In this document: positions 1 through 44,700 of the stretch, piece by piece
Layout of the letters: each line of letters opens with the position of its first letter
Position numbering within the stretch: the first letter of the stretch is position 1
Assembly (NCBI GenBank): GCA_010093605.1
Contig: MU004193.1
Location: 1,630,579-1,694,578, forward strand
Direction: 5' to 3'
Length of the DNA stretch: 64,000 nt
DNA from: Lophium mytilinum
Taxonomy: Eukaryota
Notes under the pieces: generated by a model
Seen by the model: only the letters and a program-made list of their open reading frames with translations
Told to the model about the DNA's origin: nothing
Databases searched by the model: none
Position numbers and translations under genes: made by a program

Positions 1-2545
1 AGATTCTTTCTTCTATTAATTTAATAATAATTTAGTTAGAAGAATTATTAAAGGGCGGCTAATTCTTTTCTATTATAAGTTTATAAAAAGTAGAAGTCTT
101 ATCTTTTAGATTAGTTAATTGCTCTAAGGCTACTAACTCTTCTAGTTTTCTAATAGCTTCTTAGCTAGCTAAGTATAGTTGCGTTTAATATAGCCCTTCT
201 CGCTATAATTATAGTACTTACGCGTATTAGTATTCTATTAAGTATTATCTTTACTATATCTACTATAGCCTTAACCGCGTTTTTAAGATCTAGTAGTATT
301 TCTACCTTTAAAGGCGTTTAGTTTAGCGTTATCTTTAGTATCTAGATATTTATATTTATTAGAATTAATATTAGTTTCTTAAAAGTAATTATTATCTAAT
401 TCTTTATTAGCCCTAGAGATAGCATTAAGGTGGCCTTAATAGTTTCTTATTCTCTTATACTAGAAGATCTAATACTTATTAGTAGTAGCAACCTATACTA
501 TCTATTTATTAAAATTAGAAGGGGCCTATACTTAGGCGTTAATATAAAACTTAAGGCTAGGTTTTAAATCTACGCAGGCATGTTAATATACTTTAAGATT
601 AGATAGAGCTATATTAAGAGGGTATATATAAGTAGCCCTAATAAGCTTATTAAAGAACTAATAAGTACTAGTTATCTATACTATTTTATTAAAGTAGCGT
701 TAGCGTTACTCTAGCGTATCCACGCTCTTATAGCGGCGGCTAAAGGTAGTAAAGAACTAATTTAATATAGTAAACTTAGTATTACCTTAGTAGTGCTATT
801 AAATATCTTAGTTCTATTAAATAGCTATAGTTCTAGCTATATAGCTACTAGCTAGCTAAATCTTTTAAGTTTCTAGTATCTACTAGTAAACCTATTAATA
901 GGTGTCTACTTATATAGTAATAAAGTTATATATTTAAACTATCTAGATAGGGTATATATTATTATTAACTTTATCTAACTATATAGCGGGAGTTCTTATA
1001 AAGACTTTAGATAGCGCTATTAAATAAGGTTTTCTTATAGCTAATATTCTCTTAAAGGCTTATTAGAGCTCTTATATAGTTTATTTTAATAAAGGCTTAT
1101 TATAGTCTAGTATTAGATAATCTAAGAAAGCGTTAAATAATAGACCCCGGGAATTAGTAGTACTTTAAGAAGTAGGCTGCTACTAGAGGTTATCTAATAT
1201 ATTCTTAACGCAGGCATAGTAATTAGAAACTATAGCTTATAGCTATTCTAGTATAGTAGCCTACTACTATTATATAGAAGAAGCTAATATAGAACTAAAA
1301 AGTTCTAGTTTCTAGTAATCTATTATATACTCTATTATAGGGGCTTAAAAGCATTAATAGCTATCTAAAGAAGGTATAAATAATAGCTCTTAATAGGTAA
1401 GCCCTAGATTATAGGCTAGAGTACTACTATAAATAATTAAAGAACCTTAAACTAGTAGCTTAATAGGTTCTAGAGTAGTAGCCTACTTAGCCTATAAGGC
1501 TAATATTAGATTAGATAGATTATAAGATATAGTACTAAACTAAAAGAGCCTTTAGAAGAGTTCTTAAAGGTTAGAAGGTAATCTATTAGAATAATAATAT
1601 CTATTACTAGATATAAAAGAAAGCTAAGGGTTATAAAATATCTAAGAATAAAAAAGAGTAGAAAAGAGTTAATAACTATAATATAATTAAAGTAAAGAGT
1701 AAGAAAAGGGTGCTAAAATAGTAATATTAAGTTTCTTTCTTAAATGCTTTTTAATATCCTATTAAAGAGGGAGGATTCTTAAAAGGACTTCTCTACCTTC
1801 TTCTTATAATTAACTTATAAGGATTTCTAATTACTATATAATTATTAGGCTCTATTAAGCTATAATATTATTCTTCTTACTATTCTACTATTACTCTTAC
1901 TTTAGTAGCTAATAGAACGCGTAGTTAGTTATATAGAAGTATTAAAAGGAATAGAAAAATCCTATAGTAATATTCTAGCTAAGGGCTCTTTAGACCTATA
2001 CTATTTAATTTTTATAAGAATATTTATAATAGGCGGTTATACTATAACACCAGCCTAATACTAATTAGGGGCTATTATTAATAGTTATTATTAATTACTA
2101 ATTAGGTTAATTTATAGAAACTATTAATATAGCTTAGTATTATTATAATAATCTAAAAATTCTACTAATTATAGAAGCTAATATCTTCTATTATTACTAA
2201 GAGTTAATTATAAGAATATAGCCTTAGCTAGCTTTATACTATTAAGTTTAAGAATTTAATAGCCCTCTAAGAAGGCCTTAAAGGTAGCTAGAACTATAAC
2301 TAAGCTACTAGATATAATATTTCTAATTATATAATATAAGAATTTAAAGAATAATAGATATTAATTCTATATAGAAATCTAGCTAGGCTATATATATATT
2401 AAAGAGGCCTATATAGGCCTTAATTATACTAGATCTATATAGAAAAGCGTTTCTATAGTAGATCTATATATTATATATATAATATCTAAATATTAACTAT
2501 ATATTAAGAATTCTATACTATATTACTAATTTCTAGATATTTAAG
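1..2545. mobile_element. AT-rich RIP-degenerated repeat/transposon relic (family not identifiable)
   Basis: Very AT-rich, saturated with TA/TAG/TAA and nearly devoid of CA/TG, while CG dinucleotides survive (cgcg, gcgtt). No ORF of 60 aa or more in any frame. Composition changes abruptly near 2545. This is the classic outcome of repeat-induced point mutation (CpA->TpA). Confidence 0.8.
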
Positions 2546-2904
2546 GACTGTACCCTAGTAAGCTAAGCAACTGCAAACACTAGTTGTGGCGCAGGCCCAG
2601 GATGATATTAAAGCACGTGGTAGAGGAGGCTAAGGGGCGTGCATTCGTCTTCCTTAATTAGGAGAGTTTAGCGTAAATTACAATGTGAAATGATAGGTTT
2701 TAGATATTAACCGTTACCATTCATACCCCTGTAATCCTTCCCAATACTTAGGTTTTCTTGCGTAGTGACTCAAGTGTAGACTTCCTAGGTATTGAAAAGC
2801 CGTTATGTTTCTAGAAGTAGAGATCAAAAGATGAAACGCACCTGGGAAAGAGAGCTAAAGAAGTACGTAAAACGCTGACAGAAAACCATTCTCGTATAAG
2901 GTCA

Positions 2905-3918
2905 TCAAATAGGTAACCCACGCTCTTCCCTTTTCCTTGTTGTAGTCTCCCTCCACAACCGAAATGCAGCAACCCGTTCCTCTCTCGGGAGATGGCCGAA
3001 AGTAGCTCCAGCATCGTAGTCATCCAGTGTCCTCAGCACCGTTCCGATCTCAAAGTGCGCGAAACGCTTCCCATTCACGCTGAACTGAATACTCCCGACC
3101 CTCTCATGGAGAATCGCACCATATTGGGCCGTGTGATAGGTCATGCCAAGAAGTTCTAAGCAGTGACGCATAAGGAACCAAGCGAGCCAGGTGGGCCTCA
3201 AGACTTTTTTTTGCACAGTCTCGTCGTCCTGGAGGCTCGCGGACTGGGCATGATATCGCGTGTACTTCCAATTCTCCGAGGCGGGGGGTGGAGTCTCGCC
3301 AGGGATTTCTTCCTTGTCGTCCTTACCAATGAAATTTAGATCTAGGTTCTTGATAGTAACTTCCCTGTCAAGGGATGAATCGGTATGCGGCACAGGTCCG
3401 CGCCTCAGCACATATTCCAGCAGATAGAAGAATGGCCACACTTGCCAAGGCGGCCCACCATTGCCTAAAGGCCAAGGAATATCGTGGTGTCCAGAGATGC
3501 GGATTGTGGCGTTCACCTGATCGAGCTGACTTGAGAGTGCGGGGACGGATAACCAGGTTGGCCACAGCTTGCTCTCCTCAAGGAAGATGACATCGAGTTC
3601 GTAGGGGGGATGAAACAGAGTGAGGGCCGCAGCTGTCTTGGAAGAGATTTGGCGGTTTACGAGGAGAAGAGAAGCACTGTTCGAGATGTACCCACGCGGT
3701 TCCAAGTACACTGCGAATCGGCCAGGCGCAGAGTTGAATTCGGATGGATCTTCTGGATGCCATCGTGGAGATGGAGTCGGCCGAGGCTCTGCCGTACTAA
3801 CATCTTGCGGAGGTGGTCGGGAATAGGATATGACGAGTTCGAGAATTGTATCACGAATTTCACGGGGAAGAGAGAGGAGAGGAGACGGGGTGTTCGGATC
3901 TAGGCTATTCTGCGCCAT
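2905..3918 (-). CDS. Hypothetical protein with N-terminal F-box-like motif (337 aa, single exon)
   Basis: Uninterrupted ATG-initiated ORF. The N-terminal SPLLSLPREIRDTILELVI resembles the L..LP.EI...I...v F-box-like pattern common in fungal accessory proteins. Confidence 0.75.
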   Translation of the reverse strand: MAQNSLDPNTPSPLLSLPREIRDTILELVISYSRPPPQDVSTAEPRPTPSPRWHPEDPSEFNSAPGRFAVYLEPRGYISNSASLLLVNRQISSKTAAALTLFHPPYELDVIFLEESKLWPTWLSVPALSSQLDQVNATIRISGHHDIPWPLGNGGPPWQVWPFFYLLEYVLRRGPVPHTDSSLDREVTIKNLDLNFIGKDDKEEIPGETPPPASENWKYTRYHAQSASLQDDETVQKKVLRPTWLAWFLMRHCLELLGMTYHTAQYGAILHERVGSIQFSVNGKRFAHFEIGTVLRTLDDYDAGATFGHLPREERVAAFRLWRETTTRKREERGLPI

Positions 3919-6068
3919 ACTTGGAGGTTTGTTGCTTCTTATGAATGACCTATGCTTGAGACGTCTGCGGATACGTGCTAAGATGTGTACTACAAAGCGA
4001 GGACGAATGTTGACCGTTAGGTCGCGGAAGCTGGTGGTGAAGGAAGGGCTGCAGCCTGCGGCGATCGGCTAGATCTCCCCAAGGATGGTCAGGTGACCCT
4101 TTTCCGTATCATTGATGTTGAACGCTCACATTCTGTTCTGCCATGAGAGACAGACTAGTGGGGGTCTGGAAATTTGTTAGGCTCCTTGTGGTTTGCCATA
4201 TTCGTGTAGTGGGAGTAGATCCTAGCCAATCAGCGTACAGCTACAGAAGAAATTGAGTATTTATGAAGAAACACGATCGATTGGCATTAAAAGAAGCAAC
4301 CGATATCAAATAAGAGCCTTGCTTATGTTCCAGGCAGTTATGAAACGTTTTTGGTCTTCCCACGCCAAAGAATGATTCGAATTGATATGATCTTACATGA
4401 ACAACACGTGACCCCGTACTACACCTCATACGAACATCTCTGCATCTCCACATCAAAACAACTCTCCCTAGCCCTCCGACGAAACGAAAGCCTAGAGGCC
4501 CTACACCGCCCCCCAACGATCAACCTAGTCGCATGCGGCTGACTTACTCCCGCGATGCTGCGTAACAAGGCTATCGACCCCTCCCCCCTCCACCACACAA
4601 CGCCTTCTTCCACACACCATACCCACCACTTCCCGAAACCGATTAAGTTCCCCACACGACCACTTTCACTTGATAAATTCCAGCCTCCCATGAGAAAGTT
4701 GCATCAGGCGAAGTCCGATTACAAGGAAACTGGCCCTCACGGAGGCTCAACTGCATATGCGCTCCTGCAAGCCGCGAGCCTCATTTTCAACGTCACTTGT
4801 TCTACACCGACACAATCTGAATCTTAGAAGGGCCTCAGAAGGCTTACGGAGGGATATGATTGCCAGTTTAGGTAAATGGCGATGCTGGTGCCTGGGAGGC
4901 CGCCCATAGATAGCACTGCTCCACTTCCGCACCGCCGTTGCACGGTGACTCGTGAGAGCAATAGACAACGCTGAAAGGGCGATGCAATGCGCCTTGGGTA
5001 TCAATGTTAACCTGGTGTCAAGTTACAGTTGCCAGAGGCCCGACAGTTTTGAAGGAAAGCAGGGTTGGATGAGTTGCCCGAATCCGCTATTGCTGGAGCC
5101 TACGGGCACCCGCATTGCCTGCAAGTCACGTTGGCTGAGCTCGGTGAAGGTCACACACGAGGGAGATTGCCCCTTTCCACTTGGAGCCTGCGCCGGCATT
5201 TCCGGAAGTGCTGGCGTCCACTCGAACGGACGAAGTGACGTCGCACTCTTGCAAATTTGTGCCTGTACATGGGAGTCCGGGGTGAGTATTCCACTCATGA
5301 TGCTCGCCCCTTCTTTGCGCCCTCGTAGTAGCTCCACCCCGGCTTTTGTCTCACAAGGAGGTCAGGCCTATTAAATCCATGCACGGCGCCACAACCGCCG
5401 TTCCATGCCATTGTTTCACGCTTAAATGCGACGGCTGATCTTTACGAGGGCGACCGGACGGGAGGGGCTGTGTTCTGGGCGGAGAGATGACACAGTGAGG
5501 CGAGTGACCACGATGCTTACAGTGTTGAGATGAGGAGTTGACGGGTATTAGGAGGGGGCGAAACATGAAAGAAATGTTGCACTTGAGGAGTCCATAACTA
5601 AGACGAAATTTGCATGGGGTTTTTCGCCTTCAAAAGAAGCCATTGTGTAAATTCCATGATGCGCAATTCAAAGCAATTGTCCAGCCCCGCGGGAGAAGTG
5701 AGTCTTCAGATACAAGCGCGCCACCAGGATGCTTGCTTGCTAGAATGCTAAGAACTCCCCTGAACATGATGGACATATGAATCACCGCTCGATACGATAA
5801 GACATTGAAATGAATAGGAAAACCTAGATAATAAAGTTACCACCGTGGTAGGGTATTCCGAAAGGCCATAGATTATGTAGCAGCCGGTTTACATGCAAAG
5901 AACGAACGAACTTCTACATGATGAAGTAAACCTTCCATATGCGCCCAGAGTGTGAAAGGAAAACAAACGAACGCAAACCTATCGTCCATTAGCTTGCAGA
6001 TGTGCACAGGGAAAGTACACGACATACTGTGAAGTCGCTATAGCCAGGAATGCGCATCCGCTTATCTG

Positions 6069-6663
6069 CTAGCGTTTAACGTACTCAATCACACACTTGT
6101 CGCACTTCGGTATCCCACACATGGGACACCCCGTCGTCACAGGTCCAAGCCCACCATCGCCGCAATGGCAGCAATACCACACCCAGTCCGTGTCACCATC
6201 AGTCGGGTCGCCGGAAGGGATCGAGTCGTTGCCGCGGGTGTATGCAAGGAGATACCCGGTGGAAGACGAATGATGATCGAGAAAATCGAGGTGAACAGCG
6301 CGCATTCCGGTAGCAATAGCGTCAACGATGGGTATGGCAGGCCGCGGGGACGGCATCAGAGGGAAGTTGTGGTCGTGCGAGTCAAAGGCGTTGACTAACA
6401 CTTGCCCGACGCAAGACGGAAGCAGAGGATCGTCCTCAGCATGAACATGTTCCGAGCCATCGGAACTACACACATTGCACTTGGAGATAATTAGCATCCT
6501 TGGAGACATAACTGAACGAAGAATCACATACCCCTTTGTGCTCACAATTGATGCAAACGGGTTGCAACGTGATGCTCTGTGGGCCGTCCCCACACTGGCA
6601 GCAATAGTAGTGCGTCTTCGGACCGCACATGGTCGGGCCCTTAAGCTTCGATAGAACAGCCAT
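6069..6663 (-). CDS. Small Cys-rich putative zinc-binding protein (180 aa, 2 exons) with two CCxCGDG..CxxC..CxxC modules
   Basis: Exons 6663-6532 and 6479-6069 are joined by intron 6531-6480 (GTATGT..GCTAAT..AAG, phase 0). This gives YYCCQCGDGPQSITLQPVCINCEHKG|CNVC at the N-terminus and WYCCHCGDGGLGPVTTGCPMCGIPKCDKC at the C-terminus. Confidence 0.75.
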
Positions 6664-32693: not shown

Positions 32694-33320
32694 TTGATAT
32701 TCGTGCTGAGCAGCTTGTCTTGAAGAAACCTCAGTAGAGTATTGCTCTTGTTGAAACTGACGAGGGAAAACTATGAACTTCAGTATGTGTACGCCGCATA
32801 CGCCGCATTCGCCACCCCCGCCTCGCCGCAACTCTCACTGCCACTCCGTAAAAGTAAGTGTCAACTATTCTGAAATCTGTCTTTCTTTATTTGTTCCTTC
32901 TCGCAGCACAGGGTTTCTTTTCTCGTCTCACGACACCCATGCAGAGTGCCACAGCCTTACATGGAGGCACTCCAGTCGTCTTTACATCCAGACCGTCCTT
33001 TGCTGTGCCGTGGTGCTGTCGTCGTGCAGGCTGTGCGACTTCAACTCGTAGCCACCAACTTCACAATGAGCTCCTACATCGCTGATTTAGAATCCATGCG
33101 GTCTGTTTGCCAATAGGTCCTTCAACTCTTCAAATGCACCAACCCAGTCTCTACTAATTTAAGCCGAATCACACTGCTGTTGCTAGAGCATAACCCTTGT
33201 AGGCTTAGAGTTACCAACATTTGCATGGGCGAAGTCCAGTCTATGATCTTGGGTTCGACTTGAAGAGGTCTTTGCCGCTAGTCGTTGTGCCGCATCCTAT
33301 CAAGACGGTTTGCGTAGCAA

Positions 33321-33387
33321 GGAGGATCTGAAAGCGAGGAGGATCTGACAGCGGGGAGGATCTGAAAGCGAGGATGACTGAAAGCGA
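33321..33387. repeat. 17-bp tandem repeat x4 (ggaggatctgaaagcga)
   Basis: Units at 33321, 33338, 33355 and a degenerate one at 33372, about 160 bp upstream of the metalloprotease start codon. Confidence 0.85.
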
Positions 33388-33548
33388 AGAGCGGCGCAGT
33401 ATCATGGAAAGCACCTGCAGGTGTATGAAAGAAGTGTCCTCTTCATTGCCTACTTATGCCGGCTCCACCAAGCTACTTATAGTGTCAGCTATCTACACTC
33501 ATTCTTGATCAACCATTCTACCTCATCGTTCGATACTATCTTTCCATC

Positions 33549-34514
33549 ATGAAGCCCTTGCTATTTCTTTCAGTGCTTGCAATAGGGAGTCTATCCTACT
33601 GCTTGCCCACTTATCTACCCTTACTCCGTCGTGCTGGATCTAGACCTTTTGTCTGGTTCCGAGACAGCCATGATGCGAACGCCATGCGCGAGGCTACCGA
33701 CGGAGCTATCGACGACGCCTTCGAGCTAGCATCATATGCCCAAATTCTTGCTGATGTAACGCCCGACATCTACGAGAAGTACTTCCCAAAAGAATGGGTT
33801 CCCCAAGTCATCGACATCTTCAAGCAGATTGTGCCCGATGCTGTACGTCACCTTAATTCCCATCCAGTATACAAACACTCGATTTAACCAGTTCATCCCG
33901 GCTTGAGTTGTTCCCTTCTGCCCCATGTTAATACTCCCCCACAGCAATCTGGAGAGCAAGAAGGCGGTCCCCTAGTCGGCTCCTTCTTCATCATCGACGA
34001 CAACTACAACCCCGACATCTGCAACCGCGGTGGCGAGGCCTACACCGACAATCGCCAACGCCCCGCCGACAGCGGCGTCCTGTACGACTATTCGCAGACC
34101 TACATCTGCCCCGCGACCTTCAACGAAGTCCTCGAAAAGGGAGACGGCCCCGCCCCACGCCGCGCCGACCTCGAGTGCGACGACTTCAAGTTCGCTGGCA
34201 GCTATCGCATGGCCAATGAGATGAACTACATTGGTGCCACCATCTTTCATGAGATGATGCATAGCAACCTGATCGTTGTGGTGGCGTTTAAGGATGTGGA
34301 AATTCCGGGCAGGGGAGTGTTGGATAATATGATTGTGGACGATGGGGGATATGGACCGTTCACGACGAGGAAGCTGTTAAGGGAAAATCCGGAGGCAACG
34401 AAGAGGAATGCGGACTCGTATACGTGGTGTGCGATGGAGGTGTTGTGGACGATGTTGTGCTCAAAGGAGTTGCAGAGCCAAGGGGGAAGGTTTGTCGATG
34501 CGGTTGCTGATTGA
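33549..34514 (+). CDS. Secreted zinc metalloprotease, M35/aspzincin-like (HEXXH+D), 2 exons
   Basis: Signal peptide MKPLLFLSVLAIGSLSYC. Intron 33843-33944 (GTACGT..CAG, phase 0). Motifs YICP, IFHEMMH, GYG and NADSY. Confidence 0.82.
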
Positions 34515-35164
34515 TCGTCACTCAGCACATTCCTGGAAAGACACGTAGCGCGTAGTATTGTTTCCCGTGCGTTATATACTGTTATCTAATTACTTTATAC
34601 CATCCGCATGCATAGCTTCATAGAGCAGCTCCTTAACTGCTCAGAAGGATATATGCCGAACTACCAGCCGCCTACTAATATCTCAGCCTGTATCCCTTCC
34701 CTTTTCCGTTCACTCCTAGCCTTCGCTTTCTATTTCATGTTTTGGGTTACAAAGCCATTATATCAACACGATTGGACGTATAAGTTTTCCATACCTATGT
34801 ATTCGTATAGCTAGGCTAACCTACATTGGATAATTTGCAATTGAAGCATTATATTTAACTAAGCTTGAGCGAGACGAGATATCCCAAGAGATACTTAGCT
34901 TTTACTGCAGCTTATTGGTCGGAGCAACAGCATTAGAGCTTGGTAGATAATCTAGCTGCCTACTGTTGCCTGCATGCACACCCCCGCCGCTTGAAATCTT
35001 CATAGCCAGGACGTGTCCCACTCCTAGCCTTGCCGCTAGGATTTCCAGCTATTTCCCCACCTCGTTGATCTAATCCTTCTTCCGATAATACCCACGCTTA
35101 CCTCCTCGCAACCTACTTCCCCAACTTTCGCTTCGATCTCCCAGCGTCACCCGCCATCTGCAAG

Positions 35165-35473
35165 ATGACAGACACCCCTTTAGTCCGTCTGTTCATAGGG
35201 AATCTTCCCCGCGACGTCACTAGGAATGATGTTGAACGTCTCTTCCAGCAAATCGGCGAACTTTTTGAAATCAGGCTCATGAACGGGTTCGGTTTCGTGG
35301 AGTACAACAACGCTGTGGACGCACGAGACGCTGTCGCTGCGCTTCATGGCTCAGACTTCATGGGTCAGCGTTTGGTCGTCAATTTCACCAGTGGTAGCTC
35401 TATGCCTGGACGACTCGCCCAAATTCGGCCGCGAAATCATCATAAAAAGGAGAAAGTTGCGTCCAGGGAGTGA
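35165..35473 (+). CDS. Stand-alone RRM protein or fragment resembling RRM1 of fungal SR-like proteins (Srp2/Npl3 type), 102 aa
   Basis: RNP2 LFIGNLP, RNP1 NGFGFVEY, and DARDAVAALHGSDFMGQRLVVNF. Intronless, with no second RRM or RS tail; possibly a pseudogene. Confidence 0.7.
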   Translation: MTDTPLVRLFIGNLPRDVTRNDVERLFQQIGELFEIRLMNGFGFVEYNNAVDARDAVAALHGSDFMGQRLVVNFTSGSSMPGRLAQIRPRNHHKKEKVASRE

Positions 35474-35559
35474 TTAGTGCACGATTTGAAGAAGACGACG
35501 TTTTTCTGGTTTGGAGATGGCGAGGATGAGATTGATAGGCGTGAGGCTATTGAGGGGGA

Positions 35560-35850
35560 GTGGACTACGTTAGTGCTACGGTCTTCCGTACGATGATGGA
35601 TTGCAACTTGATTGCTGTTGAGGTTTAAGCTGTGGATGCTTCGGGTAGGGGAGTGATCGATAAATTGACGTGGATGCTGAGGGCTATGGGTTGCTAACGA
35701 CGAGGGAGATAGTGGTGGAGGATATGAAGTCGATGACAAGGAAGGCGGCTCGTATGCGCGGTGTGCAATGGAGTTACTGTAAACGATGTTGTGCTGCAAG
35801 GAGTAGGAGGTTTGGGGGGGGGAAGTTTGAACATATGGTAGAGACTGATT
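35560..35850 (+). pseudogene. Decayed duplicate of the 3' half of the M35 metalloprotease gene
   Basis: Colinear with ~34225-34520, e.g. actacgttagtgctacggtcttc vs actacattggtgccaccatcttt, ggtaggggagtgatcgataa vs ggcaggggagtgttggataa, acgatgttgtgct in both. HEMMH has become RTMMD, with stops and frameshifts. Confidence 0.8.
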
Positions 35851-36249
35851 GTCATTTATTATGAGGATAATTAGTGCAAAGTATCACTCTTCCCACGCTC
35901 TATACTGTCTTCTAGTTTATCATATTAAAATATAGGAATTATGATCAGTATCACGTGATGTAAAAGTGGGCAAGCCACTGGCTTTTCACTGAACAATATC
36001 CCTCCCTTGCTCCACGAACCTTCATCAAAATTCAATCTCTTGATCTTCGTTTTTCAACCGCCATCTTACAAGAGGGATGCGTCTATGGCTTACGCCAACT
36101 CATGTCATCAGAAGACAAACCGCTTCCTATAGATGCCGAGGCCGCTACTTACACCCTGTCCTGCTCGATAGTGCTCATATTGGTTGGGCATCAAGTCCTT
36201 ACTGAATCCGAGCTTTCCGGTAGCCCGTTTCCCGTCTTTCTGAAGGCTG

Positions 36250-37377
36250 TCACTCTTCCGTTGGACCGTCTTCATGTGATGAAAATCTTGAAGGCTGCCG
36301 AATTCTCACTCCTTCCGTCACGGCTTCAGGGGGGCTCGTTCGTGTCAGAGCTTCCGAGGTTTCCACTCACGAAAACGACAAGCACTGCGGCGTAACTTGA
36401 GAGTAGCGTTAGCATTCGTAGGAGATGGCGAAGGCCGGGACACCTACGCAGCAGTGGCCGCAAACACCTCTGCCCTCCTCGCATTTGTGAGCAGAATTAC
36501 GCTGAGGGCGAACAGCGCTGTGAACGCTCCTATCATCCCCAATCGAGCTTTCGATGATCGCACGGCGTAGAGCCCTGCGATGGCTCCTACGAGCAGCACC
36601 GAGGCTATGAACGTGCTGATGATAGCTACAGCCCAGATAACGTGCCGCTCTTGGTAATGACCTGTTCGGTCTGCGCTGTGTTGGCGACTCTGAAGCCGAT
36701 GAGACAGGGCTCAATACTGAGGAAGACAACTTACAGTAACGGGCCAATGATCTTGTAGGAATCGGGAGAGAAAATCGTCGTCCGCAGGTGTCTTGAGAGC
36801 GACTAAATCCTGCTCATTATCAAGAACGTACTTTGCACGGCCTCCGAGGACAGGATCGGGCTTTGGACTCCCGTCCTTTGGTTTGCCGCCATCGAACCAG
36901 ATGCGGAATGCTTCGATGACTCGATTGCTCGGACGTTCGAGTTTGGAGACTTGGCTTTGAAGCAATAGAGCCTTGTCTTCGCAAATTAGCCCGATGCAAC
37001 TGATCAGAGGAGGAAGAGAACTCACGATACTCTTTCACTTTCTCTCTAATCTGTATAACGATGTCCATCATTTCGCGCTCTTCATCCCTAGATTTTGCGT
37101 TCTTAGAGAAGGCTTCCCACCGCCTCGCGGAGTCTTTGAAGTCGAGATCTCCCGTACTTGCGACATGGGCATCGAGTTGTGCTAAACGCTGTTCTAACGC
37201 TAAGAGCTCGCTTTGAAGGTAAAGCAGGTTTCGTGCGCTAAGCTGATCGAAACGCCGGTAAATGAATGTTTCGTTGTCCGGGTCGCGAGCTATCCAGGCG
37301 GCTACCGCTCGATAGCCATCACGGTTGGTGCTTAAGAGGCGTCCGAGTTCTATGTCTGCGGACGGTGAGAGTTGCAT
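36250..37377 (-). CDS. DUF6594-like protein: N-terminal helical domain plus C-terminal TM helices (4 exons)
   Basis: GY..VAAWIARDPD..FIYRRFDQLSARNLLYLQSELLALE..L at the N-terminus and the hydrophobic C-terminus ending ARRAEVFAATAA|YAAVLVVFVSG. Introns 37025-36977, 36734-36690 and 36447-36396 are GT..AG and keep the frame. Confidence 0.85.
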
Positions 37378-37684
37378 TTTCCCTTCATCCTTCCCAAAGT
37401 TCAACAACTCGTTTCATGTTCCGACGAGGCTTCAGGTGGTCTACGAGGTGTTTCCCATCAGCTCAAGGGCTGAGCTGCCCTTAGCGTGCATGCAGGCGGC
37501 AGGCGATGTGGCTGTGCATGACGCAAGGTGTCGTGGCACAGTGCAGGTGGGTGCGTGGGTGTCTGTCCACCCCAGCCTTCTTCCATCCTCCTATCCCCAT
37601 TATCGTGGAATGGTTCCGGAGCTTCAACATCTATTACAACGACTGATGAAATCGACTTGGACTGAGTGCTCAGCTTAGGCGTCC

Positions 37685-39381
37685 ATGGCGCAAGAGGTGC
37701 CTTTGCTCACTAACGGCCGCGGGCTGCTAAAGCGCGAAGAGCCTCCTCGGAACGCAAAGGATGACTTTGTCTGCTCACATGCAGAGTGTGCAACCCTGGT
37801 CTTCAAACGCAAATGTGAATGGAGGTTCGTAAATCCCATTATTCTCGATTGAGTTCAACGGCATTAATTCAATGTCAATAGTAAGCACATGGATAAGCAT
37901 GATAGACCTTACAAGTGCAAAGGTTCTGGCTGCGCAACACTTCAAGGTTTCACCTACAGCGGAGGGCTGCTAAGGCACGCGAGAGAGGTCCATAAGTTGC
38001 ATAGTGGAACCAAAATGACTCTATTCTGCCATCACGCCGATTGTAAGCGCTCTTCGGGCAAGGGCTTCACACGAAAGGAAAATCTCGAAGACCACAATCC
38101 GCCGCGTTCATCCCGGTACCCTCTTAGAGATGGGAAATCATATTTTCGAGCCGATAACCACTCCGAATGGCCATTTTGGTGGTTGGAAGTTAGCCCAGGT
38201 TCTTGATCGACCGTATCTGTCTCGGATATTAAGAGGTCACTTGCCCCCCGAACACCCAACCCTCAACCACTCTCGTAATCTCAAACGTCACTACGAGATA
38301 CACGGCACATTAGCAAACACCTCAGTGGCAGCTCTTCCAGATACTGGATCCGGACACAATATTTTGTCGCTTGCGTTTGCGAACGAGCATAAGCTGAACG
38401 TGGATCAGTCAGCAAAGGTCAACTTCTTACTACCCTCTGGCCAAATGACTCGCTCCGTAGGATCTGTGAAAGTTACATGGAGCTTCCTCGGCGAGTCCAA
38501 GCCACTCGACATTATTTTCGATGTGCTGCCTCGATGCACCCATCCAGTGATCCTCGGTAAGGAGTTCTTGAAGCTCACTCGGACTCTAACCCATTTGGCC
38601 CAGCGCATCAAGTCAAAGCTTCTCCCAGTTTCCGCTCAGCAGGGTGTACGTCTGCTAGGCCGGCAAAATGAAAGAGTGTTAGGCCTTCTTGAGGGACGAC
38701 CTGTCACTGCCGTGCCGGACACCGGGTCCGACGTGATGCTCATCTCGAAAGCTTACGCCATACAACACAACTATCAGATTCTCAAGGATCAGCACCTGCG
38801 ATCGGAACTTGAATTTGCTGACGGTTCTCGCGCTATCACTAGCGGGATTATTCCAGATCTAAGGTGGCGTTTTGGAAGTTCCGACCAAGATTTTTGGTGC
38901 GATTTCCACGTGCTAGACGACCTCGTTGAAAGCATCGTATTGAGCAACGACTTTTTGTTCGGTACAGACGCCTTTTCAGTGTATGCGCCATCTTTCTATG
39001 ACGAAGACGTCCTCACCCCCGAGCTTGTTTATGAGCTCAGCCTGGTGAAGCAGATTAGCTGGCTCGGGGAAAGCTTTCGGAGGGTCTTTAGGAGAACAGC
39101 CGTCACGGGTACGCACTCTCCTAGATCAGATTTCACTAGGCTGAGTACCTGGCTAACTAATTTCTCTACATCTGGACCCAGACGGTGATCTACTAAGGGA
39201 AGTTCGACAAGAGCTCCAACGTAGAGATGATGCGGAAGAGGCCATTTTCACCTTGCCTCCACACCAACAGCTTACTGCCAGAAGCATAGAAAATGGTCGC
39301 AGAGATACGTGGCAGAGGTCTCGACATCCCTCGGGGCACCCTCAAACGTTGAACACCCGCGCTTCTAACACTTCAACCTGA
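37685..39381 (+). CDS. Triple C2H2 zinc finger fused to a two-lobed retropepsin-like aspartic protease; interrupted by a +1 frameshift at ~38096
   Basis: Exon 37685-37824, intron 37825-37881, then KRKCEWS|KHMDKHDRPYKC..GFTYSGGLLRH.REVH..C...C..GFTRKENLEDH. Removing one A at 38096/38097 yields HIRRVH and reads into ORF 38130 with ALPDTGS..VILG and AVPDTGSD..FADGS..IVLSNDFL. Intron 39109-39181, then last exon ELQRRDDAEEAI.. to stop 39381. Confidence 0.75.
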
Positions 39382-40066
39382 ACTCCGGCTCTAAGGTTTA
39401 CCAGGGGTTGCCCAAGCCTGTGATCTCCCTTTCACTATGTTGTCTTTTGGGCATACTCGGAGTTGAGGTCCTTTGGCGTTGATCGGGTTTTCAATGTTGG
39501 AAATGTTCCTGGCCCAGTAATACTGATACATATATCACGCACCTCTTGCTAACAACCATTTTCAAACTGTAACACAACGCAGTCCGGCTATTTCTCCGAT
39601 TTAGGATCTTATCAGGACTACTGCTTTAGTGGTGGAAAGAAATATAAAATATCAATTCGGGAAATCATAAGCATCCAAGCCGCGTCTTTTAATTGGATAA
39701 GCCTGACAGCGCATGCCTAGAAGTACTTTGTTTCTATGTTTTACAGCTACTTGCTTAGCAAAATAGCCTTAGCGAATAGCCTTGGAGCTTGGCAAATGAG
39801 TTGGCTGCCTGCCACCACCTGCATGCAGTTGCACAGCCCCAGCCTTGTCGCTAGAAATCTTCAAAACCAAGGCATCTCCCACTTTTGAGCGAGTGCGAGG
39901 GTTTCTAGCTTTTTCCTCTCTTATTAGTCGATATTATCTTCTTGCAATTCTCGAGTAGCCAGAAACGCAAATTGGCCTGCAAATGCCGATCTTTTCATCG
40001 ACACGCCTACCTTGTCGCAGTCTCCTTTAGCGATTGCTACCCCGAAATCACCCACCGTTCTTCGAG

Positions 40067-41770
40067 ATGCATTGGACCCCATATTCCTTTCTCTACATAG
40101 AGAATCTTCCTCGCAATGTCACAGGCGGTCAAGTTATACACCACTTTCGAGGAATCTCCTACATCATTTATGTTAGGCTCCGGGATGGATTCGGAGTTAT
40201 CGACTGTGAGGGCACTCCGGACGTACGAGACATTATGACTGCCCTCCACTCTTCCACGACTCTAGACTCAACAGATGCTGTGCTTGAACTCCGCTATAAC
40301 GAGCTCATTGGTGAATATCTGGCCGTCAATTTCGCCCACGGCAATAATTCCAAGCAGATTGAACCTGAACAAAGGCCTGGACCGCTTGTCCGAAGCGATG
40401 ACCCCCTATTGCAAAGGTGGGCCAAGCCTTTGTGGGACAAGACAGGTTCGATACAAGGGAATATAAGACGATATCGGGAGTGGCAAGACAGTTGTTTTAA
40501 CCCTCAATTTTCTAGAAACTCATACTCGTACCTGGGCTCGACATGGGAGACTGATATTGCCAAATTGAGCCGCCGACAACCTTTGCAAGGACACTACCGC
40601 ATCGAAGGTACACTGAATAACAACCCAGTATCAGCCTTTCCGGACACTGGAGCAGCGAAAAACGTTATATCGCTCAACTACTGTGAGCGACTCGGAATTT
40701 CTGTTGAGAAGAGTTCCAGGCTATCTTTCCAGTTACCTCATGGTAGAATCGTCCATTCCACAGGCAAGACGCGACTCCGATGGAGATTTGCCGACGAGTC
40801 GAAGTACATTACCGCAGATTTCCACGTGGTTCCGAGTTGTACCCACAACGTCATTCTAGGCAACTCATTCTTGACATTAACGAAGTCCTTAACAAAATTC
40901 TTCCATCGAATCAAAACAAGCTGGTTGCCAACTCCCCAGCGCTTAGGGGTACAACTCTTGGGATTCCAAAGACAGCGAGTATTCGGATACCTGAATGGTA
41001 ATCACGTTGATGCAATCCCAGACACCGGCTCTGACGTTCTCCTTATTTCCAGAGCATTTGCAAAAAAGCACGGCTACCAGGTCCAAAAGTCCCTGCGCTC
41101 TGAACTCGAATTCGGAGATGGCTCTCGCACTTTCACTGACGGCATGGTGACTGACCTAGAGTGGAATTATGGCGATCCAGGAACCTCTTACACGCGTGAC
41201 TTCCATGTTCTAGAGAACCTACCCGCGGATCTCATCCTGAGCAACGATTTCCTATTTGGTACCGACGCCTTCCGGAAGAACAAAGACTGCTTCTACGATA
41301 TTGATGGCCCAGGAGCAACACAAAACCACGAGTTTAGCTTGATAAAAAACATTGGCTGGTTGAGCGATCGAATATCGAGTTTATTGAGCCGGACCTCTTC
41401 AAAAGGTACGCGACAACTCCATCGACTTCTAATCTCAATGCTAACATACACAGTATCTCAAGGTAGCATCACAATTCGATCTGAAGACGACGAAATCCGA
41501 AGAGAGCTCCAGCGTCGCGACGAGGCCGACGAAGCTATCGCGGCGCTACCGGGGGAACAGCAACGACTCGCTCAGGACGCAGAGACTCTGAGACGGACCA
41601 CGTGGACTCCCGAAACATTGGCTCCTTCGAATCCATCGATACCGTCACCAAATACCTCGAAGAGACAGAACGAGTGGTCCATTCGGATATTCCGCGGAGC
41701 TAAGGGGCGGCATAAATTCTTACAACCTAGAGACACTCGACAATCGCCTTCACGTACGCCCGTATCGTGA
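40067..41770 (+). CDS. Degenerate RRM fused to a two-lobed retropepsin-like aspartic protease (paralog of 37685-39381)
   Basis: LYIENLPRNVT..RLRDGFGVID (RRM relic), then AFPDTGAA..NVILG and AIPDTGSD..FGDGS..LILSNDFL. In-frame 48-nt intron 41406-41453 (GTACGC..CTAAC..CAG) lies at the same position and phase as in the paralog. Tail ELQRRDEADEAIAALP. Confidence 0.82.
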   Translation: MHWTPYSFLYIENLPRNVTGGQVIHHFRGISYIIYVRLRDGFGVIDCEGTPDVRDIMTALHSSTTLDSTDAVLELRYNELIGEYLAVNFAHGNNSKQIEPEQRPGPLVRSDDPLLQRWAKPLWDKTGSIQGNIRRYREWQDSCFNPQFSRNSYSYLGSTWETDIAKLSRRQPLQGHYRIEGTLNNNPVSAFPDTGAAKNVISLNYCERLGISVEKSSRLSFQLPHGRIVHSTGKTRLRWRFADESKYITADFHVVPSCTHNVILGNSFLTLTKSLTKFFHRIKTSWLPTPQRLGVQLLGFQRQRVFGYLNGNHVDAIPDTGSDVLLISRAFAKKHGYQVQKSLRSELEFGDGSRTFTDGMVTDLEWNYGDPGTSYTRDFHVLENLPADLILSNDFLFGTDAFRKNKDCFYDIDGPGATQNHEFSLIKNIGWLSDRISSLLSRTSSKGTRQLHRLLISMLTYTVSQGSITIRSEDDEIRRELQRRDEADEAIAALPGEQQRLAQDAETLRRTTWTPETLAPSNPSIPSPNTSKRQNEWSIRIFRGAKGRHKFLQPRDTRQSPSRTPVS

Positions 41771-44700
41771 AGCAGCATGCCGGGCTAGGTGTCTCATACT
41801 GAACCAAGGCACTCTTTCAGTTGAATGGGCTCGAATCACAGGGTGCTATCTGCCAGCCGGCATATAGTGCCCTGAGACATACCCTACCTCTAGATGATAA
41901 GATGAAGCTTCCTTCCCCTTGAATAATATAAAGATATAGGCGAGTTTGATAGTGGATTGATGGACTGGGACACCTCGAACTTGACTATGTTACGTGCGGC
42001 TAGGAACAGTATATCGCTGTGATTGAGCGGAAGTGGCATATAAGAAAGCTAGCCCCCGCCTGTTTAGATTTTCTTGGCTGAACGTGGTTGGCACGCAAAA
42101 CTGGTGTGTGGAAACGTCGGAGCTGCTAAAGTATGATTGGATAAAAGGTGTCGTGTTACGGCCCCTACGTAATTAACGAGATTGACGAGAGTTTTACAGT
42201 CTTGCGCGTGATCCTCCCTGATTCCGTGCTCCTCCCTATCCGCATCCTTTCTAGCCTATATTACGAGCTCCCGGCTGCACAGGCGAGCATCAATCACTAC
42301 CTTCCCCTCTCCCAAACGCTCTAGTCTACTCTTGAGACGACACCCGTGTTCCGCACCCACGGCTCCTTGAGCCGCTCCACCCTCCGCTGTCTCACCTTCT
42401 CCCAACCACGGAGCCTCAGTGACTTCTATCTCCGCACGTTCCGAAGCACAGCCCAAAATATTCGAATCCATACATCCTTGGGAGATAGAGGAGCTTCTTG
42501 CCTCGCGCTCGGATGGATCGCATGCGCCGGATTTTCCAGCAGCACCCTTCCCCTGGCTCATAGAGAATCGGGATGGGAGGTTTGGCAGCACGGCGACTGA
42601 CTATCGGATGCAGGGGTTTGCTATTTACAATGCGTCTTTAAGGGTTTGGGGCAAATCCAGATGTCTTCGAAAATGGTGGGAAGAAACTCGGCGTTGCTGC
42701 GTTTGCGGGAGGGGATCGGGGTTGGGGATGCGCTGATGGCGAAGGAGCCGGACCAGGTCTTGGCGCGGGCAGCCTTAGGTACTGGCGACGTAGGCCTTGT
42801 GGGCTGTGTAGAAATCGATGTCAGTGCCGGGGTTGGGCTGTAAACCCGGCGTGTTTGTATGATCGGAGGCAGAGAGTTGCTGATCATAATGATGTCAGAT
42901 GTCTAGTGAGGATCGAAGACGTGTCGCAATGCTCTCCAAATCAGCTCGTGAGGCCCGATTGACTGTCAATATGGTGCATTCGGGTCGAACTGCTGTACCG
43001 CTATTTTGGGATGAGAGAGCGGTCCTTTTTCGAAGACTGCATGCTGTGGCCTCTATGTGCGAAGCGCGAGGAGGGGGCTTAGACCATCGCGAAAGCAGGC
43101 CCTCTTATGTTGCATCCGTAGAAAGCGTGCTTGGGTTTGTGTACATTAGGGTATTATGGTAGGTCGCAATTGGGTTTCATATCGAGTGGCAGAAAATGCC
43201 TGCGTGTTCAGAACTTGTACACTGCAAGCTCAGACGCCTTGCAATTGCTCAAAAAGACGGTGTTGTGCTGTCTCATATCAAGTAAGGCTTTGTGCTTGGT
43301 ATAAGGAGGGATGAGTTCCCCGCCCAATGCACTCTTTGCGCAAGTAGAAGCTTGGGGCAACTGAAATAAGTGAATGGTGAATGCAGGTTACTAGTAACAT
43401 CAAAAACTATGTGAGTGAGATGTGTAAGTGAAATGTCGGCAATCAGTCCATGAATGATTAGCAGACTCTAAGAGCGAGACGGAGATGACGCGTGAATGAC
43501 TGAAGTCAAAGTGTTATCAACCCGACGACTCCTTATGGAGCACAAGAGGGACAGGAGGGTAGGACGAGGCTACAAGGATCGAGGAACCTTATTTGAAAGC
43601 ATTCTAAGGACAGGAGGGAAGACGTTTTCTTGGAGGATCCTATGAACTAGGCCAACAGCTTATTCCCGCAAGACGGAGTATAGAGCAAGGAATACAATAT
43701 ATGGTACGTAACCTTGTGAAGGTGAAAAGGGACACAAAGTCTGAAAGGTTGGATTAGGGTTGAGCGCACGTGCCTTCGGTGCACGTGAATTGGATAAGGT
43801 TTCCTGTTTCGGTCCTATTCGTTATTCGTCAGTCCTATAAATAGGCCAAGAAATTAGAAGATTTGTAACATGCTTGTCCCCTATGATGGACATGTAGCCA
43901 CCCACTTTGACCGGTGAAGACTGCCTACGGAGATGAAGGACTCCTTTGCTAGTTCGTTTTCAGTCTGCCAGGCCGAATCCCACACGGGCAGCTGAAGGGA
44001 ATCCCATGCTTAGCCAGGGCAGCAGCGGCCGAGGAGTGAATAGCGTGAAGCTATCTCCACTATCCCTCGACCCAGCATTCCAAGCACAAGAAGGAACATC
44101 ACGAAGAAACCTCGCACAACTTGCACCGCCGTTTTAATGAGCGATGAATGGCCCCCAAATATTGGTATTACGCAACACTAGGACTTTTTCCGTCAACAAT
44201 ACCGGCCGATCAGCATTCAGGTGCCCCGGACTACGCGGCCCCCAGTCGCCCGTCCGTCATCGAAAGTGCGAGCTGGCGACGGCAGACGGTGGTTGAGACA
44301 TGGAGTGGTTGATCTCGAACTGCGCCTTAAGGCTACCCAAGAGCTGATGTGAGTGAGGCTCCAGCCGAAGCTGAAGATCGCGGTCGCTTCTGCACATCAG
44401 CCCTTCCAGTGGCGCATGGTGGTCGAAACAACGTGGAGTATCCCGTCTAGACTGCGTTCTTAAATCCTTGGCTCGGGCAATGGCCAGCTGGCGGGGAAGC
44501 GTAGGGCGCATGTGCTTTTGTGGGCCGTTCCTCGACTTCTCATCACCATCTTTCATTGGTGCCTCAGGACGGCTGTATGCAGGGCTGCTTACCACGGTGC
44601 TAGCACTGTCAGCGCAGTTGAGCTTGTGCTGATTTGAACCTTGGCACTCCCGGGGAAAGGCGTCCACGGGTAAGTATATGTAGGCGATCGCCACTTTCTT

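Follow-up and report, generated by a model that had tools for sequence, protein, structure and literature searches.

The question raised by this locus is which of its genes belong together. The window, i.e., the whole stretch of 64,000 nucleotides that was analyzed, comes from Lophium mytilinum (Dothideomycetes), and the initial annotation had tentatively read about 8.5 kb of it as one system in which a zinc-finger- or RRM-gated retropepsin would cleave a membrane effector. The unit that is retained here is smaller than this 8.5-kb island and probably consists of two genes, one coding for a DUF6594 membrane protein and the other for a single-chain retropepsin; their head-to-head pairing probably marks an undescribed two-part system.

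The locus

The six features of the initial annotation are all located at the place given, with three caveats: (i) the score of the M35-type metalloprotease is sub-threshold; (ii) the zinc fingers of the first aspartic protease (protease e) are out of frame; (iii) the RRM of the second one (protease f) is degenerate. The local duplications that were claimed are borne out by sequence self-comparison. The features are as follows.

33549..34514, + strand: aspzincin-like secreted metalloprotease gene, exons 33549-33842 and 33945-34514 (motifs, weak Pfam)
35165..35473, + strand: lone RRM ORF, 102 aa (Pfam RRM_1, E 1.2e-17)
35545..35851, + strand: metalloprotease 3' fragment, pseudogene (72% identical to 34211-34513)
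36326..37377, − strand: DUF6594 membrane-protein gene, core of the putative module; four exons (37377-37026, 36976-36735, 36689-36448, 36395-36326), 301-aa product
37378..37684, no strand: divergent intergenic region between the DUF6594 gene and protease e, 307 bp between the two ATGs
37685..39381, + strand: protease e, head-to-head partner of the DUF6594 gene (ORFs, sequence, Pfam)
40067..41770, + strand: protease f, intact paralogue (single ORF, Pfam, RNA contig, model)

No gasdermin match and no NACHT or NB-ARC domain is found by Pfam among the window genes. The three sequence runs used (X1-X3) are letter-identical and represent one strain.

The DUF6594 gene and its divergent partner

The DUF6594 profile (PF20237) matches three ORF pieces of the gene (E 8e-20, 8.4e-9 and 8.9e-19, i.e., 72.2, 36.1 and 68.8 bits for a cutoff of 30 bits) and is covered from position 1 to 232 of 238, which places the product in this family. 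NCBI model P0159 is 98% identical to it. RNA contig record 6 lacks all three introns (36977-37025, 36690-36734 and 36396-36447). The predicted layout of the protein is an N-terminal helical hairpin, a linker and three C-terminal transmembrane helices, and its sequence contains three hydrophobic segments. The structure model was made on the orthologue P0161 (89% identical) and is of middling confidence (pLDDT 68.7). Foldseek and VIA return generic coiled-coil hairpins and helical bundles with Z values up to 9.7, i.e., below the level that the tool considers meaningful for helical models. Gasdermin, HeLo and MLKL-type folds are absent from these match lists, which excludes nothing. An Atlas search excluding PF20237 gave no usable match and no paper on DUF6594 was found in full-text searches.

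Protease e starts at ATG 37685 and, after an intron (37825-37881), codes for three C2H2-like fingers (pattern C-x2-4-C-x12-H-x3-5-H), recognized by eye and without Pfam match at E ≤ 10. A +1 frameshift lies inside finger 3 (about 38089), so that the second His pair of this finger is in the +1 frame; the frame of the fingers ends with a stop at 38204-38206. The two DTG lobes are in the protease frame, which extends to about 39108 and is followed by a 73-nt intron, a C-terminal tail exon and a stop at 39379-39381. The joints observed in RNA contigs are 37822/37880 and 39107/39181. None of the three runs has an indel at the frameshift site, and the zinc fingers are left out of NCBI model P0015, which begins at M38130. 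A programmed +1 frameshift was considered and rejected: since the site (CAC-A-ATC) is not known to match any slippery heptamer and sits inside a zinc finger, the frameshift is read, from the sequence, as a mutation. In Lophium, the partner protease would thus have lost the reading-frame link to its own zinc fingers.

For both partners (DUF6594 gene and protease) the introns are removed in RNA contigs of the same Lophium RNA library; the RNA identity of run X3 is labelled a guess, but its contigs are devoid of the introns. The 307-bp intergenic region is presumed to be a bidirectional promoter for the DUF6594 gene and protease e. It contains CGATGTGGCTGTG at about 37503-37516, and the 8-mer GATGTGGC recurs in the intergenic regions of four related loci (L002, L006, L011 and L013). 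In related loci the ATG-to-ATG gap is 375-851 bp (8 distinct loci), and is estimated at about 2.0-2.3 kb in L002 and L003.

A single-chain retropepsin family

Protease f begins with a degenerate RRM-like region, followed by two DTG lobes and, at the C-terminus, a helical tail. Its 48-nt intron (about 41404-41451) is in frame and is removed in RNA contig record 7 (39181-42189). P0001 is 97% identical to it. Both proteases score above the cutoffs of Asp_protease_2 (PF13650) and gag-asp_proteas (PF13975), two families of clan AA, with 59.9 bits (cutoff 24.3) and 55.9 bits (cutoff 28.2) for f and 44.7 and 39.2 bits for e. Each lobe carries one D-T/S-G motif (PDTGSG and PDTGSD in e, PDTGAA and PDTGSD in f), so that e and f belong to the retropepsin-like proteases. 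They are 46% identical over 284 aa. The initial annotation was right about two paralogous two-lobed proteases; it also gave them different N-terminal nucleic-acid-binding modules, and this part needs qualification, the fingers of e being out of frame and the N-terminus of f matching RRM_1 (PF00076) at 13.5 bits only (E 0.066, cutoff 20.7 bits). Among 116 aligned family members, 115 retain the catalytic Asp of both lobes, and 933 representative clusters are found at E ≤ 1e-30 with the protease profile.

The usual retropepsin is a homodimer of one domain of about 100-130 aa, whereas two domains are present here in one chain. The core of the f model has a pLDDT of 94-98; it superposes on a tethered HIV-1 protease dimer with Z 15.2 and rmsd 2.6 Å (182 of 198 residues aligned), and Foldseek matches it to tethered HIV-1 proteases with E 9e-9 and TM 0.64-0.71 by target. 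The family is thus predicted to fold as a retropepsin pseudo-dimer. Because two domains lie in one chain and the model is aligned over both lobes to tethered HIV-1 dimers, the family appears, on the model, as a variant architecture of retropepsin-like proteases.

The two lobes are 28% identical to each other. The nearest solved sequences by profile are the RVP domains of DDI2/DDI1 (E 1.6e-7), and single lobes superpose on Ddi1/DDI2 with Z 13-14 and rmsd 2.0-2.2 Å. The similarity is limited to the RVP domain, i.e., the proteases do not belong to the Ddi1/DDI2 family, and no UBL or UBA is matched by Pfam in e, f or 155 relatives. Neither do they belong to the pepsin-like A1 family: PF00026 is not among the Pfam matches, there is no hydrophobic N-terminus and the structural match is weaker than to retropepsins. 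No signal peptide or hydrophobic segment is seen in the proteases. N-terminal additions found by Pfam among the 155 relatives are EST1, DnaJ, Tcp11, the PAN3 zinc finger, M16, an ATPase N-terminus and RRM. No publication on tandem or single-chain retropepsins came up in full-text searches, a Talaromyces aspartic-protease paper dealing with secreted pepsins only.

Recurrence of the pair

Twenty metagenome loci were taken with the protease alignment, one scan being seeded by two peptide patterns. Fourteen are informative, i.e., extend 1.5 kb or more upstream of the core; the six others have at most 1,013 bp. In all 14, a DUF6594 gene lies upstream of the tandem-retropepsin gene, on the opposite strand and at 0.4-2.3 kb, the linkage being counted from the protease side (protease loci with a DUF6594 neighbour). 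These 14 loci correspond to 11 distinct ones (L006=L007; L017=L018=L020), which represent at least 5 lineages and are about 30-40% identical to each other; several may belong to a single clade or be paralogues from the same genome. The DUF6594 N-exon is above the 30-bit Pfam cutoff in 10 of the 11 (20.2 bits in L014), and no further DUF6594 match is present elsewhere in the 229,307 bp scanned. The protease and DUF6594 genes are the only content common between lineages. The other flanking genes differ by locus: amino-acid permease, PRPP synthetase/OGT, P450/ADH, DEAD helicase or NACHT-ankyrin. Across loci, exons are interrupted at identical positions of the profile. Pairwise identities among the proteases and among the DUF6594 proteins are correlated (Pearson 0.95 between the two matrices), as expected for any two co-inherited genes. 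Loci with the pair turn up in each major clade of a FastTree tree of 174 rows, which omits P0001 and P0015 (the f and e genes), L007, L018, L020 and the rows with a core match of at most 200 profile positions.

In Lophium, the accessions KAF2493057 (DUF6594) and KAF2493059 (f) follow the order of the window and serve as positive control. In Mytilinidion resinicola, KAF2804458 (DUF6594) and KAF2804459 (e-like protease) are consecutive, and KAF2803327 (DUF6594) is close to KAF2803329 (f-like protease); this suggests two more pairs, adjacency being deduced from accession order only. Moreover, in P0064 (Cladosporium fusiforme) the N-domain of DUF6594 (profile positions 3-123) is found at residues 56-156, directly before the two lobes. 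This is the one fusion among the 155 family members scanned; a search for longer proteins starting from the DUF6594 N-domain gave one 363-aa protein and no fusion.

The recurrent linkage of tandem retropepsins and DUF6594, which the initial annotation had proposed to check, is thus found in the 14 informative loci and in the fusion, and is suggested in Mytilinidion. Two other proposals are not supported: (i) that the 8.5-kb patch is a single system, since none of the 20 loci contains a relative of the metalloprotease, of its fragment, of the lone RRM or of the zinc fingers; (ii) gating by a zinc finger or an RRM, which does not fit fingers that are out of frame in e, an e-like Mytilinidion protein with only about 25 residues before the core, or the N-terminal extensions of the 14 locus proteases, in which no Pfam family is found.

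Possible role of the pair

The reading that we prefer, with moderate confidence, is that the pair is a co-regulated, membrane-linked proteolytic module, divergently expressed from a short common intergenic region. The N-terminal helical hairpin of DUF6594 would be a docking surface bringing the soluble protease to the membrane. There, the protease may cleave the DUF6594 linker, or clients chosen by its own variable N-terminal extension. In Lophium this module may have been reworked, f being possibly an older paralogue with a decaying RRM. It must be said that f has no DUF6594 gene of its own in Lophium and that the adjacent e is frameshifted, which counts against the module.

Docking or regulation is ranked slightly ahead of a DUF6594 protein acting as a cleaved effector. 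According to the latter explanation, which we consider unlikely, the retropepsin would cut DUF6594 and so free its membrane part or its N-domain, which would bring about death or arrest of the cell, in the manner of gasdermin/protease pairs. Cell-death-type domains in 2 of the 155 relatives (HET in P0110, PNP_UDP_1 in P0148), a P-loop seen by eye in P0012, a NACHT-ankyrin gene adjoining the pair in L018 and many paralogous pairs within one metagenome agree with such an effector. However, the transmembrane helices of DUF6594 are constitutive, its model has no informative fold match, NACHT and NB-ARC have no Pfam match in the 155 relatives, and, with 11 distinct loci, a single NLR neighbour is roughly what chance would provide. 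A bidirectional promoter that is hard to split, with products that do not act on each other, is less probable still. Short-spacer divergent pairs resist separation even without joint function, and the short spacers (375-851 bp in 8 distinct loci), the intergenic motif common to several loci and a correlated divergence that follows from co-inheritance alone are in line with such inert synteny. On the other hand, the two genes are still together where identity has dropped to about 30% and all other neighbours are different, and mis-annotation of a divergent pair cannot give rise to a same-chain fusion such as P0064.

The pair, or the protease alone, could also be a mobile cassette derived from a co-opted retroelement protease, spreading by duplication and capturing host 5' pieces; among these explanations it is the one to which we give the least credit. 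The best Pfam families are indeed gag-asp_proteas and Asp_protease_2, PF13975 (n=296) is among the commonest domains in the fungal host-TE fusion candidates of PMC10799480, the N-terminal additions are fragments of ordinary proteins (EST1, DnaJ, Tcp11, PAN3 and others), genomic contexts vary, and the window pair sits between the two halves of a duplicated block. Nevertheless, no inverted repeats of at least 25 nt are present in 33000-42500, no reverse transcriptase or integrase is present in the flanks scanned, intron positions are conserved and the nearest solved sequences are of the cellular Ddi1 type, not retroviral.

A bolder proposal, which is doubtful at present, is that the pair is a widespread and so far unseen fungal proteolytic switch at the membrane, i.e., a third class of protease plus membrane executor beside gasdermin/S8 and gasdermin/CHAT; the fast-changing N-terminal host pieces (RRM, zinc fingers, EST1, DnaJ, PAN3, HET) would serve as baits which, on sensing interference, set the protease free to act on DUF6594. 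If the pair is a cleavage switch, a new protease class would enter fungal regulated proteolysis or cell death; if the membrane-switch reading is true, it would give the DUF6594 family its first function. The conserved divergent partner, with its clear predicted catalytic activity, already provides a first testable functional hypothesis for DUF6594.

Comparison with known systems

The best match over both lobes is to engineered tethered («covalent dimer») HIV-1 proteases (1G6L, 1HVC, 4EP2). These are laboratory fusions of two identical subunits, whereas the gene of the window protease is a natural one: the lobes of its product have diverged, the linker between them is longer and the chain ends in a helical tail. 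The protease can be regarded as their natural counterpart. Pepsin-like A1 proteases and compact bacterial bilobal folds also have one chain, two lobes and one Asp per lobe. The f model is aligned with B. fragilis 9IY9 (Z 13.3, 210 residues) and with the C-domain of M. tuberculosis Rv0977 (4EHC; Z 10.4, 189 residues), and more weakly with pepsins, renin and BACE (Z about 9, TM 0.3-0.4). A duplication-and-fusion step between retropepsins and pepsins was reportedly proposed by Tang and colleagues in 1978, and the protease would be a living example of it.

Ddi1/DDI2 and the window proteases are all cytosolic aspartic proteases (by prediction for the latter), and the former are the nearest solved proteins by profile and by lobe. 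Ddi1 is a homodimer with one RVP domain flanked by UBL/UBA, while the window family has two RVP-like lobes per chain. Among retropepsins, DDI2 offers a precedent for action on an anchored membrane protein, since it cleaves membrane-tethered NRF1 (PMC7369636).

Two-gene gasdermin-protease clusters of the het-Q1/het-Q2 type are described in filamentous fungi by Clave et al. 2022 (PMC8851545). In both cases a protease gene recurrently adjoins the gene for a membrane-acting protein, the pairs are widespread and multicopy in Pezizomycotina, and the protease partners have variable extra domains. The het-Q-like clusters associate an S8 or CHAT protease, the only two named in the passages of PMC8851545 on these clusters, with a gasdermin, a soluble protein whose cleavage leads to pores; on the contrary, sequence and models give for the window pair an aspartic protease, i.e., a single-chain retropepsin, and a partner from an unstudied family whose three membrane helices are constitutive. 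Fungal proteomes frequently contain fusions between gag-type aspartyl-protease domains and host domains (PMC10799480); the passage on PF13975 candidates says nothing of tandem lobes or of a neighbouring DUF6594 gene.

Neighbouring genes and local duplication

The metalloprotease, its fragment and the lone RRM look like bystanders to the conserved module and by-products of local duplication. In a phmmer comparison with the 20 loci, the zinc fingers, the RRM, the metalloprotease and the N-terminus of f had no match outside the window; only the C-tail was matched in related loci (L002 and L003).

The metalloprotease gene extends from ATG 33549 to the stop at 34512-34514, with an intron at 33843-33944. 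The aspzincin (peptidase M35; PF14521, PF02102) signature is HExxH plus GTxDxxYG. The gene, the hydrophobic N-terminus, HEMMH and DDGGYG agree with the secreted M35-type protease that was announced; the Pfam score does not (Aspzincin_M35, E 0.047, 14.6 bits for a cutoff of 30). The nearest ESM-Atlas clusters are Ascomycota hypothetical proteins, 11% of which have Aspzincin_M35, and exon 2 has no PDB match by phmmer at E ≤ 10. Run X3 has no cover over 33634-34901 (metalloprotease), from which no inference is drawn.

The fragment is indeed a pseudogene: it is 72% identical over 298 aligned nt (score 218, maximum 40 for shuffled sequences; blastn E 5e-29), has lost HEMMH and contains stops. The flank 34849-35086 matches 39687-39948 at 72%. 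A local segmental duplication of about 1.3 kb probably produced both the lone RRM and the fragment; an 816-nt RNA contig (35051-35866) covers the former and includes the latter. The lone RRM, also announced, is a true member of PF00076 (64 bits for a cutoff of 20.7). It is 32% identical to the N-terminus of f and, judging from this resemblance, represents a truncated copy of 5' sequence related to the first part of f. Its best PDB relatives are the RRMs of SRSF6 and Npl3.

The patch and its gene pair

The initial annotation had read the whole 8.5-kb patch at 33321-41770 as one candidate protease/membrane-effector system. Its observation is real, with caveats, and all the features that it listed are present:

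ATG 33549, stop 34512-34514: metalloprotease gene, with a 102-nt intron (33843-33944)
35165-35473: ORF of a lone RRM (RRM_1, E 1.2e-17)
35545-35851: metalloprotease fragment, a copy of the metalloprotease 3' end (72% identity)
37377-36326, minus strand: DUF6594 gene (PF20237, membrane-protein family), intact, three introns
37685-39381, plus strand: e, tandem retropepsin (two DTG lobes)
40067-41770, plus strand: f, paralogous tandem retropepsin

The long ORF of f has its best protein match in Lophium mytilinum (97% identity), a fungus of the Dothideomycetes, order Mytilinidiales. The patch is flanked by ordinary genes: (i) upstream, EMC1, a CAP59-type mannosyltransferase, a DHHC palmitoyltransferase and a Ras-family GTPase; (ii) downstream, an acyltransferase, a WD40 protein and a cytochrome-b5-reductase-like gene.

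DUF6594 and tandem retropepsin genes form a conserved, divergently arranged and co-inherited pair. The linkage check proposed at the outset was run on 20 metagenome loci, fetched with an alignment of 14 tandem-retropepsin proteins and each containing one tandem-retropepsin ORF. A DUF6594 profile built from 50 homologues was run on all their six-frame ORFs. It has a match upstream of the protease, on the opposite strand, in 14 loci (L001-L007, L011-L014, L017, L018 and L020) and none elsewhere in the 229 kb scanned. The six other loci extend no further than 1,013 bp upstream and are too short; the pair is thus found in 14/14 informative loci, from several lineages. These are 11 distinct loci once identical copies are removed; Pfam's own DUF6594 model is above cutoff in 10 of them and reaches only 20.2 bits in L014.

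The ATG-to-ATG gap is 375-851 bp in 8 distinct loci, about 2.0 kb in L003 and about 2.3 kb in L002 (first-Met estimate), and 307 bp in the window (to the ZnF start of e). The pair loci agree in the profile positions of their exon breaks. At least five lineages are represented, with 28-40% identity between lineages for both proteins. Protease and DUF6594 are the only ORFs common to different lineages, the flanking genes being variable. The paired loci are scattered over all major clades of a FastTree tree of 174 cores (SH-like support only). P0001, P0015, L007, L018, L020 and rows with a core match of no more than 200 profile positions are absent from this tree. The identity matrices of the two partners are correlated (Pearson 0.95, Spearman 0.81), which shows that partners were not swapped; co-inheritance alone would give that correlation too.

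In named genomes, the Lophium GenBank accessions follow gene order: DUF6594 (KAF2493057), e, then f (KAF2493059). From accession numbering, not coordinates, we infer two pairs in Mytilinidion resinicola: (i) DUF6594 KAF2804458 and the e-like protease KAF2804459, which are consecutive; (ii) DUF6594 KAF2803327 and the f-like protease KAF2803329, two places apart. Both members of each pair are on an equal-sized scaffold. Moreover, in protein P0064 (Cladosporium fusiforme) DUF6594 profile positions 3-123 immediately precede the two lobes. Since mis-annotation cannot join a divergent pair into one chain, this natural fusion, a single case, is independent evidence of a functional link.

The one-system reading stands for the link between protease and DUF6594, a recurrent pair, and fails in its extent. 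None of the related loci has a counterpart of the metalloprotease or its fragment, of the lone RRM or of the zinc fingers, all of which are treated as probable bystanders.

The motif CGATGTGGCT(G/T) is found at 37503-37516, in the DUF6594/e intergenic region, and in the intergenic regions at L006 (~8557), L011 (~1131), L013 (~2302) and L002 (~8611), i.e., in the divergent intergenic regions of pairs representing four lineages. Its 8-mer has 23 occurrences in 229 kb in total and 5 in some 6.6 kb of intergenic DNA. The motif may be a shared promoter element. In L018 an NLR-type ORF of 1,709 aa (1150-6276), NACHT (NPHP3_N)-ankyrin, adjoins the DUF6594 gene of the pair.

Predicted structures and possible function

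The protease model (P0001, the public model of f; 116 sequences) has a core (115-360) with pLDDT 94-98 and a confident C-terminal helical hairpin (401-440). In Foldseek, engineered tethered dimers of HIV-1 protease take the first 17 places (E from 9e-9; TM 0.64-0.71 by target). Residues 118-347 of the model align with tethered HIV-1 protease (VIA-align) at Z 15.2 and rmsd 2.6 Å over 182/198 residues. Ddi1-type RVP domains resemble one lobe of the model (Z 13-14), whereas pepsins have a Z of about 9; by sequence profile DDI2 and DDI1 are the closest solved proteins (E 1.6e-7). Both catalytic Asp are conserved in 115/116 members, lobe 2 being stricter (DTG in 104 members vs. 65 for lobe 1). The protein is apparently an active single-chain retropepsin.

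The DUF6594 model, made on the Mytilinidion orthologue (89% identical), has a mean pLDDT of 68.7. Two long helices run antiparallel in it (32-68 and 92-123, pLDDT 85-92); after them come a linker of poor prediction quality and three transmembrane helices. Hydropathy likewise gives three transmembrane segments. Fold searches returned generic helical matches only.

The DUF6594 protein and the protease would act jointly at a membrane, the DUF6594 hairpin being the putative contact between the two partners; DUF6594 may be an anchor, a regulator or a substrate. Its two main readings are framed by precedents: the cleavage of membrane-tethered NRF1 by DDI2 (PMC7369636) and the gasdermin/protease gene clusters (PMC8851545). 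PF13975 is listed among fungal host-TE fusion candidates (PMC10799480). Full-text searches found no literature on "DUF6594" or "PF20237", and none on tandem or single-chain retropepsins except an unrelated plant paper.

Protease family and add-on domains

The protease profile, searched against 1.84 billion representatives, has 2,916 matches at E<=1e-3 and 933 at E<=1e-30. Named members are from Cenococcum, Mytilinidion, Cladosporium, Elasticomyces, Plenodomus, Botryosphaeria, Stachybotrys and Hyaloscypha, genera spread over Dothideomycetes, Sordariomycetes and Leotiomycetes. A Pfam scan was made of 155 members (64 at E<=1e-3 plus 91 at E<=1e-5).

Table. Extra domains among 155 protease members
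EST1_DNA_bind: 2
DUF6590: 3 (P0032, P0105, P0042), plus 1 weak (P0031)
DnaJ: 2
Tcp11: 1
Cation_ATPase_N: 1
HET: 1
PNP_UDP_1: 1
zf-CCCH_PAN3: 1
WW: 1
Peptidase_M16_C: 1
DUF6594: 1

DUF6590, EST1 and DnaJ are the most recurrent add-ons; DUF6590 is another fungal domain without known function, and in 3-4 of the 155 it is fused N-terminally to the tandem retropepsin. P0002 (522 aa) has three lobes, with an extra copy of lobe 1, preceded by a single C2H2-like finger. The add-ons, which vary from member to member at the N-terminus, might serve as baits or for targeting. Duplicated protease genes could equally have captured them as a promoter plus first exon, a reading which the history of f and the lone RRM in the window fits.

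Duplication within the patch

Three duplicated colinear blocks were found.

Table. Duplicated blocks
Block 1: 34211-34513 vs. 35545-35851, 72%
Block 2: 34849-35086 vs. 39687-39948, 72%
Block 3: 35174-35346 vs. 40076-40248, 62%

They fit a duplication of about 1.3 kb, from within the metalloprotease gene to just beyond the N-terminal RRM of f, which would have left a truncated RRM copy, then the metalloprotease 3' fragment. In the right-hand copy, the DUF6594/e pair (~35944-39381) separates block 1 from block 2; no inverted repeats flank it (none of at least 25 nt in 33000-42500). The duplicated RRM coding block (62%) is less similar than the duplicated non-coding flank (72%), and the copy in f has an extra insertion and almost no Pfam signal left, which suggests relaxed or diversifying change in the RRM block after duplication.

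Gene models and RNA

e and f are 46% identical over 284 aa, and the two lobes inside one protease about 28% identical to one another. The N-terminal nucleic-acid-binding modules first ascribed to them were located, with reservations. In e, three C2H2-like fingers, recognised by eye and without Pfam match at E<=10, lie upstream in a frame other than that of the protease; finger 3 (EDH/IRRVH) is complete only with a +1 shift (...GAA GAC CAC A ATC CGC CGC GTT CAT...). The RRM of f is degenerate (RRM_1, E 0.066).

The contigs of sequencing run X3, from a study other than that of runs X1 and X2, match the window letter for letter. Absent from them are the three DUF6594 introns, two introns of e (the ZnF one and the C-terminal one) and the f intron, which supports the three gene models and places the three genes in one RNA library. 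No run has inserted or missing letters relative to the window; the frameshift of e is thus real in the sequenced strain.

Public models differ: P0015 (e) begins at M38130, excluding the fingers; P0001 starts within the RRM; P0159 (DUF6594, 278 aa) is without the 23-24 residues VALKTPADDDFLSRFLQDHWPVT (36690-36760, minus strand). These residues are kept by the RNA contigs and both Mytilinidion orthologues, and the annotated intron of P0159 is too long.

One RNA contig (39181-42189) joins the last exon of e to the complete f gene, either by read-through or by co-assembly of overlapping transcripts; another spans both divergent genes, DUF6594 and e.

The metalloprotease has HEMMH, DDGGYG and a hydrophobic N-terminus. 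Its assignment to Aspzincin_M35 is weak (E 0.047, 14.6 bits, below the cutoff of 30); phmmer against PDB gave no match, and the closest Atlas clusters are Ascomycota hypotheticals, 11% with Aspzincin_M35. The fragment contains stops and has lost HEMMH. The nearest relatives of the lone RRM are the SRSF6 and Npl3 RRMs; an 816-nt RNA contig (35051-35866) covers it, then the metalloprotease fragment.

The start of the patch coincides with a 17-bp tandem repeat, AGCGAGGAGGATCTGAA (33316-33391; 4.5 copies with 85% matches), located some 160 bp 5' of the metalloprotease ATG. Finally, positions 1-3000 are AT-rich (GC 27-31% vs. about 50% elsewhere), seemingly as in a transposon relic after repeat-induced point mutation.
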